51,845 nt of DNA from positions 1 through 51,845 of the forward strand of contig JBHLLU010000030.1 of the NCBI GenBank assembly GCA_048938895.1, written 5' to 3'. How positions within the stretch are numbered: position 1 is the first letter of the stretch; each line of letters opens with the position of its first letter. This document shows, piece by piece, positions 17,553-41,811 of this stretch. The translations under genes and the position numbers were made by a program. Origin of the DNA: Promethearchaeota archaeon (GTDB taxonomy: Archaea; Asgardarchaeota; Lokiarchaeia; Sigyniarchaeales; SOKP01). Under the pieces are notes generated by a model. It was not told the origin of the DNA. It made no database searches and was given only the letters and a program-made list of their open reading frames with translations.

Positions 17553-18338
17553 TTAGACAACAATATTGTATTGCTTTTCGATAATTTCACCATCTATATC
17601 CACTGATCGAAATAATTTCGCTTTTCTTATGGCTAATATTCTTTTTAATCCCCAATTATCCACGTCATCAGGTAATTCGATATCATTAATCCTATAATTA
17701 TTTGAAATAATAATATTTTTCCATTTCTCTGGAAGCTCGGATTTAAAATCTGATAAGACAAGTTCTAAGGTCTTTTTTAAGTTTTGTTCAGTGTTGTTCA
17801 TAATACCTGTACAGAACTGAATCCTTTTATTTATATCATCTTCCTCAACCTTCTTTTTAGAAGGTTGTGGAATATTTTTCTTGGTAGAAACCTTACATGT
17901 AGGGCTTATATTGAAGGAAATTAAATAATAACTAGTTTTTCTAAAAGCTTCGATACTTTCAAGAAACGTACCTCTAGTTGTTTTACTTAGAACATTTGCT
18001 TTATAATTCTTCGTCTGTCCTGATGACTTTTTAATAGTCCAATTGAAACCTAGGTTAGTAATTAGATCGCTAATATCACTGCCAGAAATTAAAACTCCTT
18101 TAATTTCGAATTCATCTTGAGAAATTGTGTTCGCTACAGCCTCCAGAATTACATCTTCATATTCATGGCTACCTTTTAAAGTTATTCGAGTGTTGGTTTT
18201 AGTTATTTTTAGTGCGGGACCTATAAATTCTCCTTTGGAATACCTATAGAAATGACGATGAATATCTTGATGTTCTACAGCAGGATTCTTTAAAATTGGA
18301 GACTCCGTTATCTTTTTTAGAAAATGCATCTTAATCAT
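17553..18338 (-). CDS. Conserved hypothetical protein
   Basis: 261-aa ORF with HRHFYRYSKGEFIGP motif; function not recognised. Confidence 0.7.
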   Translation of the reverse strand: MIKMHFLKKITESPILKNPAVEHQDIHRHFYRYSKGEFIGPALKITKTNTRITLKGSHEYEDVILEAVANTISQDEFEIKGVLISGSDISDLITNLGFNWTIKKSSGQTKNYKANVLSKTTRGTFLESIEAFRKTSYYLISFNISPTCKVSTKKNIPQPSKKKVEEDDINKRIQFCTGIMNNTEQNLKKTLELVLSDFKSELPEKWKNIIISNNYRINDIELPDDVDNWGLKRILAIRKAKLFRSVDIDGEIIEKQYNIVV

Positions 18339-18484
18339 ACAAAAATCTTTGATTAATTATTAAATAGAATGTATTTAATAATTATCAAAAAATTATTATT
18401 TTAAATTTTACTCATCAATAAAATTAAAAAAAAATCCATCATAACTTACAAATACTAGTTATAAAAAAAATTGGTCTTCTGTAA

Positions 18485-18685
18485 ATGGCTCAAATTCCTT
18501 CGTTGTTATTATGGGTATTAGCATGGTTTTTTTTATTTATAGGGCTAACTGCATTGGCAATTTTAGTAATTTATACACGATACGGCAGAGAAAAATCAGT
18601 TCAATTATCAGTAATTAGCATAATTGTCGCATCGGTATTCCTAGGATTCTCTATTCACTTCTTCTTGTTGAATTGGGGAATTTAA
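18485..18685 (+). CDS. Small hypothetical membrane protein (2 TM)
   Basis: 66-aa ORF with two hydrophobic helices. Confidence 0.7.
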   Translation: MAQIPSLLLWVLAWFFLFIGLTALAILVIYTRYGREKSVQLSVISIIVASVFLGFSIHFFLLNWGI

Positions 18686-18823
18686 GGTATATGAATAGAA
18701 TTCTTAAATGAAGTAGTTTTATATTCATTTTGCTTATACTTTCAGAACTCAACCTTTAAAAAAGAAGAACTCATTTATTTTTATTACTGTATTTAAAAAA
18801 AAAATATTACTAAGGTCATAAAA

Positions 18824-19264
18824 ATGTTATTTCAAGATGCTGAACCCCTATTTTTTATCTTATGGTTAATACTAGCGACGGTTATTGTATTCTTAATAAT
18901 ATTTATAGTGGTACTTCTCTTAGAATCGAAAACAAAAGCTTCTGACAAAAAATTCTTGATAGCAATTCTTGCATTCATTATAGTTTTGCTGCTACCCGTT
19001 GTTTTAAACGCAATTAACACAGTATTAAGTGCTATTGGAGATGCTTTAGCTGAAATTAGGAATGTATTTGATGATGGAGGTGTTAACTACTTGACGAATC
19101 TAACACCGATTATTGGATTTCTTATTTTATTAGTTCTTGTAAAGTTTTTAATCGATCTACCATGGGATAAATCTGTGTGGGTTTCTTTATTGACTCTGTT
19201 TATTTTGTACGTACTTTATTGTTTAATACCTGAACTTTATACGTTTTTAGGTTTCGGATTTTAA
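18824..19264 (+). CDS. Hypothetical membrane protein (about 4 TM)
   Basis: 146-aa highly hydrophobic ORF followed by T-tracts. Confidence 0.75.
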   Translation: MLFQDAEPLFFILWLILATVIVFLIIFIVVLLLESKTKASDKKFLIAILAFIIVLLLPVVLNAINTVLSAIGDALAEIRNVFDDGGVNYLTNLTPIIGFLILLVLVKFLIDLPWDKSVWVSLLTLFILYVLYCLIPELYTFLGFGF

Positions 19265-24928: not shown

Positions 24929-25032
24929 CGGGCTATAGGGGAATTGAACCCCTGACCTTCCTTTCTATAAGAGACCATCTAATAAATTTCAGGTTAAAAG
25001 CCTGCCGCGCTACCTGCCTGCGCTAATAGCCC
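24929..25032 (-). tRNA. tRNA-Lys(UUU) with a 30-nt non-canonical intron (24958-24987, about position 44/45)
   Basis: Acceptor GGGCTAT/ATAGCCC+G, D stem GCGC/GCGC, anticodon loop CTTTTAA, T arm AGGGG-TTCAATT-CCCCT. Confidence 0.92.
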
Positions 25033-26250: not shown

Positions 26251-26352
26251 GCCTCTGTGGCTTAGTGGTAGAGCTATTGATTCGTAATCAATTGATCACG
26301 TGATTCAAGCGATCAGATGATTCGGTCGGGGGTTCAATTCCCCCCAGAGGCT
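26251..26352 (+). tRNA. tRNA-Thr(CGU) with a 30-nt non-canonical intron (26292-26321, about position 42/43)
   Basis: Acceptor GCCTCTG/CAGAGGC+T, anticodon arm ATTGA-TTCGTAA-TCAAT, T arm GGGGG-TTCAATT-CCCCC. Confidence 0.92.
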
Positions 26353-38931: not shown

Positions 38932-40422
38932 TTACCCCTTAACAACTCCTACTGGTACAAGTCTTACAACCTTTTCAACAATATCCAGATCATGACTCAC
39001 TTGAACCACTTGATCTATATCTTTGTAGGCTCCGGGACTTTCTTCGGCTAGCACTTTCATAGAGGCACTTTTTACTAAAATACCTTTCTTTCCTAAATCT
39101 TCTTGAATTTTAGTTCCCCAGTATCTTTTGACTGCTTTTGATCTAGACATAACTCTACCCGAACCGTGAGCAGTTGATCCAAAAGATAACTCCATGGCTC
39201 TTGGTTTACCAACGCATAAGTAAGAGGCTGACCCCATAGTTCCAGGAATTAAGGCAGGTTGACCAATGTCTTTATAATCTTGAGGTAAAACTGGGTGATT
39301 TGGAGGAAATGCTCTAGTTGCTCCCTTTCTATGCACATTTAATTTCATCCTTTTTCCATTTACTTCATGCTCTTCTATCTTGAGAATGTTATGGCAAACA
39401 CCATATATCATATGTAAATCCAACTCATCTAAATCTTTCTTAAATGCATTTTGAAAGGATTCTCTTAACCAATGTGTTATTAATTGACGATTTGTAAATC
39501 CAAAATTAGCAGCACAAGCCATTTGTTGTAAATAATTCTGTGCTTCAAGAGTATCCGCAGGTACACAAGCTAGTTCTCTATCAGGCACTTTAATCTTATA
39601 TTTTTTCATTGCTTGTTCTATTTTTCGCAAACTATCTGTACAAACTTGATGTCCTAATGCTCTACTCCCTGTATGAATCATTATAGTGATTTGATTCTTT
39701 TCAGTTATTCCTAATTTCTTAGCAATTGGGGTATTATAAATTTGATCTACTTTCTGAATCTCAAGAAAATGGTTTCCGCTTCCTAATGATCCAAGCTGTT
39801 TAATTGCTCTCTGTTTTGCTTTCTGTGACACCAAACTTGCATCTGCATTCTTCAAACATCCACGTTCTTCTAAGTGTTTAAGATCTTCGTCAATGGCATA
39901 ACCATTTTCTAACGCCCAATTGACCCCATTATTTAGTACTCTATCTAAATCTGAATAGCTTATATTTAGTTTACCTTTAGAACCTAATCCGGAAGGGATA
40001 TTATTAAATATTTTATCTAATAAATTTGGGAGTACATTTTTAAGATCGTTAAGAGATAGATTTGATCTTAATAAACGTACACCACAATTAATATCGTACC
40101 CTACGCCTCCTGGAGATATCATTCCAGTCTCAGCATCTGTCCCAGCAACCCCACCAATACAAAAACCATATCCTTGGTGGGCATCTGCTAATGCGATTGC
40201 ATGTTTTTGAATTCCTGGAAGGCATGCTACATTTGCGATTTGATCTAATGTCCGATCCTGTTTTATTTTTTCTAAGATATAATTATTGGCATAGATCTTG
40301 ACAGGGACTCGCATCTGGAATTTTTCTATATTTCCTTGAATACGCGTCATCAAAGTTTTAGGAGATATCTCATAGATATTCTCCTCAACTTTATTCACAT
40401 TCATACTGCAATTATAAGTCAA
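38932..40422 (-). CDS. rtcB: tRNA-splicing ligase RtcB (start possibly ATG 40404)
   Basis: DAHQGYGFCIG, GVGYDINCG, GSGNHFLE, HTGSR, HRKGATR, HGSGR, EESPGAYK; no intein. Confidence 0.98.
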   Translation of the reverse strand: MTYNCSMNVNKVEENIYEISPKTLMTRIQGNIEKFQMRVPVKIYANNYILEKIKQDRTLDQIANVACLPGIQKHAIALADAHQGYGFCIGGVAGTDAETGMISPGGVGYDINCGVRLLRSNLSLNDLKNVLPNLLDKIFNNIPSGLGSKGKLNISYSDLDRVLNNGVNWALENGYAIDEDLKHLEERGCLKNADASLVSQKAKQRAIKQLGSLGSGNHFLEIQKVDQIYNTPIAKKLGITEKNQITIMIHTGSRALGHQVCTDSLRKIEQAMKKYKIKVPDRELACVPADTLEAQNYLQQMACAANFGFTNRQLITHWLRESFQNAFKKDLDELDLHMIYGVCHNILKIEEHEVNGKRMKLNVHRKGATRAFPPNHPVLPQDYKDIGQPALIPGTMGSASYLCVGKPRAMELSFGSTAHGSGRVMSRSKAVKRYWGTKIQEDLGKKGILVKSASMKVLAEESPGAYKDIDQVVQVSHDLDIVEKVVRLVPVGVVKG

Positions 40423-40963: not shown

Positions 40964-41749
40964 TTATTTGATTTCGACAAAGGAAAGAAGCTCTAACTTA
41001 TCCAAGTTATTCATTATCTTCTGAATTTCTGATTCTGGGCGACCAGATTCTTCAGCAATGTCAGCAATCGTATGAAATCCGTCAGCTAAATGTGCAATCT
41101 CAAATTCTTCTTCATCCAATACTCCCTGTGCAACGACTTGTTTTGGTAAACGTTTACTAGTCCATTCTGGTTTGACGTCCTTCACTTCACGTAAGTCTTC
41201 CTCTGATAAGATTAATCCTTTCTTGGCAATTTGCTTCTGGGATTTAAGGAAATCTTTTTTAAAAATTTTCAAAATGGGAATCTTTAATTGGATCTCGGCA
41301 ACCTTACCACTCTTTAATATCTCATCTATTACACTCTCAAAATCTCGGAAAATCCTTACATCTCCAGACCAACCGTCAAGTTGATCACCAAATTTTCCTA
41401 CAAACTTATCAATTATATCAGTTAACGCTTTATGAGTAATTTTAGCATCATCATTTTTATCAGCGGCAGCAGTACATAAAACACCCTCCTTAAAGACTAA
41501 TAACAGGTAAAAAACCTGCATGTCTTTACTAATAGATAGAATCTATCTATAACCTATAACTTTAAGTTCCCCACTTCCCTTAGAGAACTCAACACTAAAG
41601 TCTTTAAGTGCTGTGAGAAAACCGCTGACTAAATCCTGATTAAATTCAATCCTCCCATACTTTCTGTGGATTAAACAAATACCCGTTCATAACCAATGGA
41701 GAACTCCCGTTGATTTATATTGGTGTATCAAGTAAAAATTATGTAAAAT
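40964..41749 (-). CDS. Longin-domain + winged-helix protein, three exons (41749-41716, 41685-41554, 41523-40964), 241 aa after splicing; ATT start
   Basis: Spliced N-terminus (I/M)LHNFYLIHQYTGICLIHRKYGRIEFNQDLVSGFLTALKDFSVEFSKGSGELKVIDMQVFYL is a longin pattern, in frame with the 185-aa ORF; SD-like GAGGTGA 9 nt before the ATT. Confidence 0.85.
41524..41553 (-). other. Predicted BHB intron 2 of the longin gene (30 nt, contains in-frame TAG)
   Basis: G-TTAT-AG^G-TTATAGATAG-ATT-CTATCTATTA-GTAA-AG^A-C: 4-bp central helix, two 3-nt bulges, 8-bp perfect inner stem. Confidence 0.85.
41686..41715 (-). other. Predicted BHB intron 1 of the longin gene (30 nt, contains in-frame TGA)
   Basis: CC-AATA-TA^A-ATCAA...TTGGT-TATG-AA^C-GG: central helix 3 bp + A.G, inner stem ATCAA/TTGGT, outer pairs CC/GG and ATAC/GTAT. 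Confidence 0.78.
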
Positions 41750-41811
41750 GGGACCTTTTCACCTCTAACCTTTATATTTTAAACATTACAATTAACTATG
41801 ATTCTATTAAA

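Follow-up and report, generated by a model that had tools for sequence, protein, structure and literature searches.

A longin-type gene of an Asgard archaeon interrupted by two predicted bulge-helix-bulge introns

Introduction

In Crenarchaeota, the pre-mRNA of cbf5 contains an intron with a motif of the bulge-helix-bulge (BHB) type (Watanabe, 2002; Yoshinari, 2006; Yokobori, 2009; PMC2738675); the same three papers are cited in an article of 2025 (PMC12397907), and cbf5 studies are also cited in one of 2018 (PMC5829648). A BHB intron in the 5' untranslated region (UTR) of HVO_1309 from Haloferax volcanii was reported in 2020, in a paper stating that among mRNAs only the cbf5 intron had been known until then (PMC7714728). 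We describe here a protein-coding gene of an Asgard archaeon that very probably contains two such introns. It occupies positions 40964-41749 of the window, by which we mean the whole stretch of 51,845 nucleotides (nt) that was analyzed (contig JBHLLU010000030.1 of assembly GCA_048938895.1, a Promethearchaeota archaeon of the Sigyniarchaeales), and is predicted to encode a protein with a longin fold and a winged helix.

The likeness to cbf5 consists in a coding gene with a short BHB intron, a hetero-oligomeric tRNA splicing endonuclease, a presence and loss that are specific to lineages, and the errors that gene callers make at such genes. The cbf5 system, however, comprises one intron in one gene of hyperthermophilic Crenarchaeota, for which splicing has been shown experimentally, whereas the gene described here has two introns, with a third site in other species, belongs to an Asgard archaeon and has predicted splicing; furthermore, inserts mostly of 29-31 nt are found in no fewer than seven additional genes of this genome, and the host genes are not cbf5 homologues. 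The HVO_1309 intron is likewise an mRNA substrate of the splicing endonuclease EndA outside tRNA and rRNA, but, as described in its report, it is located in an untranslated region and the reading frame is independent of it (PMC7714728).

Introns have also been described in Asgard tRNA genes; these come from the same clade, presumably depend on the same enzyme and motif, are small, occupy many positions and have been gained and lost repeatedly; in the excerpts of those reports at hand the introns concern tRNA genes only, and protein-coding genes appear as synteny anchors. A further parallel is the non-spliceosomal, stress-regulated splicing of HAC1/XBP1 mRNA by the endonuclease IRE1, with ligation of the RtcB type in metazoa. 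It resembles the system proposed here in that protein enzymes splice an mRNA at paired stem-loops and that removal changes the reading frame, and it differs in employing IRE1 instead of EndA/TSEN, with no homology of the introns implied. A full-text literature search turned up no description of BHB introns in mRNAs or protein-coding genes of Asgard archaea; with subscription journals and supplements outside its scope, an earlier description is possible. The mechanism would be of a known kind, and it is the scale and setting that appear new: several introns per gene, many genes, an essential gene among them, and an Asgard lineage.

Gene structure and predicted splicing

On the minus strand a single frame runs from an ATT codon (41749-41747) to a TAA stop (40966-40964), broken by the in-frame stops TGA (41689-41687) and TAG (41545-41543), each of which is part of a 30-nt insert (Table 1). 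An earlier note, made from the letters of the sequence alone, had proposed just this division, with the frame rejoined across the junctions 41716/41685 and 41554/41523 as LIHQY|TGICL and ELKVI|DMQV, and its coordinates are borne out by the frame and by comparison with orthologues. The three exons add up to 726 nt (34 + 132 + 560), i.e., 241 codons and a stop, which equals the orthologue length, and in an alignment with ten orthologues, all possessing the N-terminal half as the note had expected, both gaps are exactly ten residues long and fall at the two predicted junctions. On this comparison alone, identity of the bases on either side leaves a play of 1 nt in each insert boundary.

The register was examined with a scorer that lays out four exon bases paired with four bases near the 3' end of the intron and a bulge of 3 nt on each strand, and that also counts the inner helix of the intron and the outer helix of the exons (maximum score 17). 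Archaeal EndA cleaves after the second base of each 3-nt bulge, and the scorer places its cuts accordingly. Nine registers (-4 to +4) were scored per insert, and for both of them register 0, i.e., junctions 41716/41685 and 41554/41523, gave the best BHB of the nine; the best-scoring register is thereby also the one that restores the protein, which agrees with the claim of the note that both inserts are BHB motifs cut by the EndA rule. In intron 2 the central helix is formed by UUAU (41559-41556, exon 2) and GUAA (41529-41526) with all four pairs, flanked by the bulges AGG (41555-41553) and AGA (41525-41523), and the inner hairpin pairs 41552-41543 with 41539-41530 at nine of ten positions. In intron 1, AAUA (41721-41718, exon 1) faces UAUG (41691-41688), the bulges are UAA (41717-41715) and AAC (41687-41685), an inner helix is present, and an outer helix is formed by the pairs CC/GG (41723-41722 with 41684-41683). 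Both introns show the BHB motif in a relaxed form, that of intron 2, with a strong inner and a weak outer helix, being HBh'-like and that of intron 1 having three central pairs and an A.G mismatch. Cutting at the symmetric bulge positions would yield a mature RNA that encodes the orthologous protein.

A conventional gene caller would output just the part of exon 3 that starts with ATG (40964-41521, 185 amino acids). The codon at the orthologues' start position is ATT in this gene and ATT, ATC, TTG, GTG or ATG across 20 aligned loci of the same genus, with ATT or ATC in several species (loci L004, L006, L008, L009 and L010); because several intron-less orthologues also have ATT or ATC there, the ATT start is no sign of decay. 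A Shine-Dalgarno-like stretch precedes the start codon (Table 1), as GAGGT-like stretches do in relatives.

We propose that the gene is transcribed together with its two intervening sequences and that the pre-mRNA would fold into a BHB at each intron, with four exon bases upstream of the 5' splice site pairing with bases at the 3' end of the intron. In both bulges a heteromeric archaeal EndA would cut behind the second base, and the exons would be joined by RtcB to an mRNA for a 241-amino-acid longin/winged-helix protein; left unspliced, the transcript would be translated for 24 codons before a stop. Considering the anatomy of the gene, the register of its junctions, the conservation and covariation of the motif, the intact exons under selection, the enzymes encoded in the genome and the same inserts in other genes, all of which are described here, it is very likely that a functional gene is interrupted by two BHB introns spliced by EndA and RtcB.

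Table 1. Coordinates of the interrupted gene, its neighbor rtcB and inserts in other genes of the genome (names of the host genes of inserts from Pfam; positions on contigs other than the window carry a contig handle).
Feature	Location	Strand	Length	BHB score	Remarks
Whole interrupted gene	40964-41749	-			three exons and two introns; predicted 241-amino-acid product with N-terminal longin-fold and C-terminal winged-helix domain
Shine-Dalgarno-like GAGGTGA	41759-41765	-			9 nt upstream of ATT; read from the sequence, putative function
Exon 1	41716-41749	-	34 nt		first codon ATT at the start-codon position of orthologues
Intron 1	41686-41715	-	30 nt	13	contains TGA; relaxed BHB motif
Exon 2	41554-41685	-	132 nt
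Intron 2	41524-41553	-	30 nt	15	contains TAG; BHB motif
Exon 3	40964-41523	-	560 nt		includes TAA stop 40964-40966
RtcB RNA ligase gene	38932-40422	-			Pfam RtcB E = 6.7e-170; two genes downstream, same strand
Insert in AIR-synthase-like gene	C101 4435-4464		30 nt	17
Insert in CdhD gene	C117 20988-21017		30 nt	16
Insert in Elf1 gene	C77 30531-30561		31 nt	15
Insert in RNA polymerase A' gene	C159 9088-9172		85 nt	15
Insert in flavodiiron protein gene	C144 62167-62213		47 nt	14
Insert in SCP2 gene	C101 22160-22189		30 nt	10
Insert in hexapeptide-repeat protein gene	C123 71049-71079		31 nt		via paralogue match, checked by reading the two open reading frames alone

Distribution and covariation of the inserts

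A search with the read-through translation of the gene (X at the stops) gave 1189 candidates, of which 404 proteins matched at E <= 0.001; most of the best 120 of these 404 are 241 amino acids long and 70-86% identical. Their source records are labeled Promethearchaeota, Lokiarchaeota and similar, and the lineage label Lokiarchaeia goes back to such record names only. Among 24 genomes of the same genus, 22 have a full orthologue, mostly free of both inserts, one a partial one and one none. The 20 aligned loci of this genus, the window included, have the insert at the first site in two cases and at the second site in three, and the two closest relatives are devoid of both.

A wider scan with one genome per species gave 80 loci, of which 59 are uninterrupted alleles of 723 nt with identical flanks, so that the expectation of intron-less alleles in relatives proved correct. 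The 30-nt insert at the second site recurs in 13 of the 80 loci, besides the window, and the one at the first site in four, three times with 30 nt and once with 31 nt. Since the 31-nt insert shifts the frame, that allele is in frame solely after its removal. A third site, two codons past the first, is occupied in three loci (L190, L192 and L203) by inserts of about 33 nt that come after the residues TG and lie within the I codon, and all three of these loci also carry intron 2. Every insert across the loci has a stop or shifts the frame; the identity of the stop varies among carriers (TGA, TAG, TAA), and some inserts hold two.

The proposed pairings are conserved in these alleles. In an alignment of 14 intron 2 sequences 90.5% of the cells are paired, compared to 36-52% when the partners are slid by one to three columns, and seven pairs change on both sides, a value reached by one of 500 shuffles. 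The central helix is paired in all 14 sequences (100%), and covariation extends to the first outer pair (GC in 10, AU in 2 and GU in 1), both of whose members are synonymous positions of the exons. For intron 1 (five sequences) the corresponding figures are 85.3% and 41-52%; here both partners have changed in six pairs, including two of the central helix (AAUA/UAUG vs. AGCA/UGCG or UGUU). These compensatory changes indicate that the BHB structure is maintained by selection, a result whose strength is limited by shared ancestry in the case of intron 1.

On a gene tree of 81 alleles the 14 intron 2 carriers do not group together but are interleaved with non-carriers; at least 12 changes are needed on this tree, 11 of them forced by well-supported branches, compared to a mean of 13.1 after shuffling, so that the carriers cluster no more than shuffled labels do. 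As the intron is clearly homologous among carriers that are nevertheless scattered, many precise losses or lateral spread must have taken place. Neither intron has further copies in the whole genome (BLAST), and they are therefore not a repeated mobile element.

Selection on the exons and authenticity of the inserts

The ratio of nonsynonymous to synonymous substitutions (dN/dS) of the exons is 0.020 against the nearest intron-less relative, and its median is 0.06 among 20 computable pairs of carriers and 0.049 among 258 pairs of non-carriers, all of these being comparisons in which dS is saturated. With dN/dS values of about 0.02-0.06, purifying selection on the exons is strong, and they are free of the decay that a pseudogene would be expected to show.

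DNA contigs from four sequencing runs were compared with the window. Both inserts recur without a single difference in a separate assembly of what is probably the source run, a second sample has a contig of 450 nt that extends over both with four differences and no gaps, and contigs of two further studies extend across intron 2, one of them also across intron 1; intron-less relatives were found in the same samples. The presence of the inserts in contigs of three studies shows that they did not arise by faulty assembly, and the suspicion of an artefact that the earlier note had raised against itself falls away.

Comparable inserts in other genes

The note had recommended a genome-wide look for stop-containing BHB inserts. 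We ran it as a comparison with the relative G002 that made no use of the motif: 1955 open reading frames of at least 100 amino acids from 1.86 Mb (42%) of G002 were searched with tblastn against this genome, inserts with a stop or a frame shift were retained, and 21 registers were allowed in scoring. A list of DNA indels obtained by blastn (83 gaps of at least 9 nt) had been too noisy at 72-80% identity, and tblastn was used instead. The census yielded 17 frame-breaking insert events, among them both introns of the gene described here and six further inserts in other genes; a seventh was found through a paralogue match (Table 1). When the eight census candidates are joined by the BHB rule, the resulting junction peptide can in every case (8/8) be aligned gap-free with the orthologue. 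The inserts are mostly 29-31 nt long, their bulges usually start with A, and those of 29, 31, 47 and 85 nt shift the frame. Nine of the 17 events were not counted as introns, having scores of 12 or less and being mostly N-terminal or of low identity; these are probably differences in start sites or upstream regions.

As background, 4000 random coding sites per length were scored in 21 registers, of which 1.3% reached a score of at least 15, 6% at least 14 and 19% at least 13. Five census events score at least 15, compared to 0.2 expected (P = 0.013 per site), which is a clear excess.

The strongest indirect argument for the removal of such inserts is provided by the RNA polymerase. The gene of its catalytic subunit A', rpoA1, has a single match in this genome and is interrupted within GHFGHI|ELARP by a frame-shifting BHB insert of 85 nt (locus L120 1089-1173; L206); as the gene is essential and single-copy, it cannot stay unspliced. 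Among 30 rpoA1 loci fetched from 41 genomes searched, one other (G022) has a diverged version of the same insert with a BHB score of 16, a third species (G017) has a different BHB insert of 30 nt, located 4 nt upstream, with a score of 15, and the remaining 27 are uninterrupted. Because the same type of insert is found in other genes including the RNA polymerase, mRNAs of this genome probably need tRNA-style splicing.

The reverse search, with 4947 open reading frames of this genome against the G002 sample, returned 14 events, four of which are located mid-gene and are BHB-like (C1 288828-288858, C3 around 215412-215439, C2 178201-178231 and C2 163690-163720 of G002). One of the four adjoins the WCGPC motif of a thioredoxin. 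The other ten were set aside for a low BHB score, a location in the first ~20 residues or an identity below 60%, and they too are probably differences in start sites or upstream regions. The counterparts of the G002 inserts in this genome are uninterrupted, and intron positions therefore differ between close relatives. It seems somewhat more probable than the contrary that the genus holds a whole population of BHB mini-introns of ~30 nt in coding genes, tens per genome and including essential genes (RNA polymerase A', Elf1, CdhD, thioredoxin), with gain, loss or movement frequent enough to make most sites differ between close relatives.

Observations against splicing and alternative explanations

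Several observations weigh against the reading of the inserts as spliced BHB introns. In intron 1 the central helix has just three Watson-Crick pairs and an A.G mismatch, and, with 21 registers permitted, 19% of the random coding sites attain its score of 13; in intron 2 the outer helix is weak, with one covarying pair followed by mismatches. The folding energy of the single sequences is not significant (z = -0.23 and -1.37 for the two inserts), and the support for the motif therefore rests on the register test, the covariation and the orthologues. The covariation figures are inflated by shared ancestry, which the controls cannot fully remove, and those of intron 1 come from five sequences. 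The cut rule was adopted as general background and checked on just two canonical tRNA introns of this genome: applied to its tRNA-Met and tRNA-Lys, the scorer cuts at the canonical position 37/38 with an offset of 0 and takes the anticodon stem as the outer helix. In a broader control with 12 tRNA intron calls by aragorn, nine of which could be scored, the boundaries agreed in three of nine and differed in six of nine, a mismatch that may come from multiple introns per tRNA and from aragorn ignoring the motif.

Ab initio scans for a BHB that joins two open frames point in the same direction. An unrestricted scan gave 144,837 hits; against decoys with shifted registers, 18,441 true hits stood beside 17,650-18,836 decoy hits, and with a restriction to 27-35 nt and a long inner hairpin 843 stood beside 788-901, in both cases with no excess. 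The noise of these scans stems from adjacent genes on the same strand and from chance open frames, and because there is no excess over decoys, the motif alone fails to identify such introns. That the transcripts are actually cleaved and ligated, and with what efficiency, we infer from sequence. Of the refuting conditions named in the earlier note, all those amenable to testing had an outcome favorable to its interpretation of a BHB-intron mRNA.

The alternative that survives best, although we hold it to be unlikely, accepts the inserts as real EndA substrates and proposes that splicing is partial or conditional, the introns acting as a switch, or that cleavage without ligation destroys the mRNA. 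The relaxed motif of intron 1 might indeed be cut inefficiently, and the BHB intron in the 5'-UTR of Haloferax HVO_1309 seems, in the account given of it, to matter for expression (PMC7714728). None of the present results, however, points to regulation; the interleaving of carriers and non-carriers on the gene tree is a better fit to a neutral presence and absence than to a conserved regulatory role, and the intron of rpoA1 must be removed efficiently.

One might also suppose that the inserts stay in the mRNA and are bypassed by the ribosome, or that their stops are read through by recoding. Programmed translational bypassing is exemplified by gene 60 of phage T4 and the yeast mitochondrial 'byps', and requires matching take-off and landing codons. 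A superficial likeness to such elements exists in the short length of the inserts, the stop near the 5' end and the hairpin, but inspection of the sequence reveals no codon pair for take-off and landing from which the junctions VI|DM or QY|TG could result, and a conserved, covarying helix that joins exon bases to the 3' end of the intron with 3-nt bulges is the geometry of an EndA substrate and not that of a bypass signal. Read-through, for its part, would place ten extra residues in the conserved longin core, which are absent from all 241-amino-acid orthologues; it cannot explain the frame-shifting inserts of 29, 31, 47 and 85 nt, and the identity of the stops varies among carriers besides. 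We consider retention of the inserts in the translated mRNA very improbable. Selenocysteine or pyrrolysine read-through, inteins, group I or II introns and translated palindromes resembling miniature inverted-repeat transposable elements were likewise set aside, since the size of the inserts, the variety of their stops or the lengths that shift the frame are incompatible with them.

Even less credible is a pseudogene in decay, or inactivation of the allele by a pair of small palindromic insertions, whose likeness to a BHB would be due to chance or a by-product of hairpin insertion. The stops in both inserts, the ATT in place of an ATG, the imperfect motif of intron 1 and the frequency of hairpins in AT-rich DNA, where structure scans are noisy, could all be read in this way, but the dN/dS of the exons equals that of intron-less alleles (with synonymous sites saturated), 13 and four other species, respectively, have retained the inserts at identical sites with compensatory changes, and ATT or ATC starts occur in intron-less orthologues too. 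Moreover, the genome has no second orthologous copy, its next-best match having E = 4e-11, and like inserts break the single-copy rpoA1 in three species. An error of assembly, binning or sequencing, which could be suspected in a window from a fragmented metagenome-assembled genome of 174 contigs with an estimated contamination of 7.49%, is refuted for practical purposes by the independent assembly of the probable source run, by contigs of three further runs from two other studies, and by homologous inserts in assemblies of 13 other species.

Implications for gene annotation and intron evolution

Splicing of the inserts by EndA and RtcB, if confirmed, would mean that Asgard gene catalogues systematically truncate or split such genes and that the two enzymes belong to general gene expression in this lineage. 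Public databases hold protein fragments of the kind to be expected, some of 187-190 amino acids that start at residue 58-59 and others of 55-73 amino acids that cover residues 6-58; five of them (P0140, P0145, P0152, P0127 and P0133) match residues 6-58 or 58-240 only. Judged from these extents, they look like gene-caller products of intron-bearing alleles. On the same condition, the lineage nearest to eukaryotes would offer a direct test of how introns in coding genes are gained and lost without a spliceosome, and the patchy spread of a clearly homologous intron already raises the question of precise loss or spreading. If a whole population of mini-introns exists in the genus, it would represent an enzyme-catalyzed, intron-rich state of mRNA that precedes the spliceosome and is independent of it, invisible to standard gene callers.

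The encoded protein

The earlier note had called the N-terminal half a longin domain. In the window's own sequence this call stays below threshold: the read-through translation matches Pfam Longin with E = 0.021 and 15.2 bits against a cut-off of 26.2, and the matches to helix-turn-helix families, winged ones included, are also below their cut-offs. No PDB sequence reached an E-value lower than 0.4 in a profile search, and the ESM Atlas returned unnamed Asgard clusters only. The call is supported by structure and remote relatives. A model made on the orthologue P0002 (86% identical), rather than on the window's own spliced product, has a predicted local distance difference test (pLDDT) value of 84.7 and the order beta-beta-alpha-beta-beta-beta-alpha-alpha, and its top PDB matches in Foldseek are longin domains (E from 1.6e-5), namely those of AP complexes, TRAPP, Sec22b and Mon1-Ccz1, with a target-normalized template modeling (TM) score of 0.74 for Sec22b (1ifq). 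Among 1.84 billion representatives searched, 488 relatives were recovered, of which the more distant ones listed mostly share the N-terminal 130 residues alone. Among 61 aligned members, Fuz_longin_1 is recognized in six, Clat_adaptor_s in four and Longin in four, and Ras/Roc GTPase domains occur in seven.

The model and these relatives support an N-terminal longin fold fused to a predicted C-terminal winged helix. The orthologue model shares the topology of longin proteins such as the sigma and mu subunits of AP complexes, Sec22b, TRAPP and Mon1-Ccz1, and the protein differs from them in its C-terminal winged-helix fusion.

Splicing enzymes and tRNA genes

Both enzyme types of the route put forward in the earlier note are encoded in the genome. 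In addition to the rtcB gene near the interrupted gene (Table 1), two paralogues of EndA (tRNA_int_endo, ~200 amino acids) are located on other contigs, with 99.8 and 66.2 bits against a cut-off of 27. The adjacency of rtcB is probably coincidental, because the intron-less relative G002 shows the same gene order. Asgard archaea have been described as possessing an (alpha-beta)2 EndA with a loop linked to broad specificity (PMC5829648), and the predicted splicing endonuclease of this genome, which is accompanied by RtcB, is presumably of this broad-specificity type.

The tRNA genes of the genome are interrupted as well: with intron search, aragorn found 24 of them, 13 with introns, in agreement with the literature, where Asgard tRNA genes are described as heavily interrupted. 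A default tRNA search found none in the window, where two regions of 102-104 nt, at 24929-25032 on the minus strand and 26251-26352 on the plus strand, match the Rfam tRNA family with 54.9 and 61.3 bits; with intron search, aragorn reads the window tRNAs as Lys(TTT) with an intron of 22 nt and Thr(CGT) with one of 17 nt. Its candidate calls also include a tRNA-SeC (C51 105615-105707) and a doubtful tRNA-Pyl on C124 with an 'intron' of 1828 nt.

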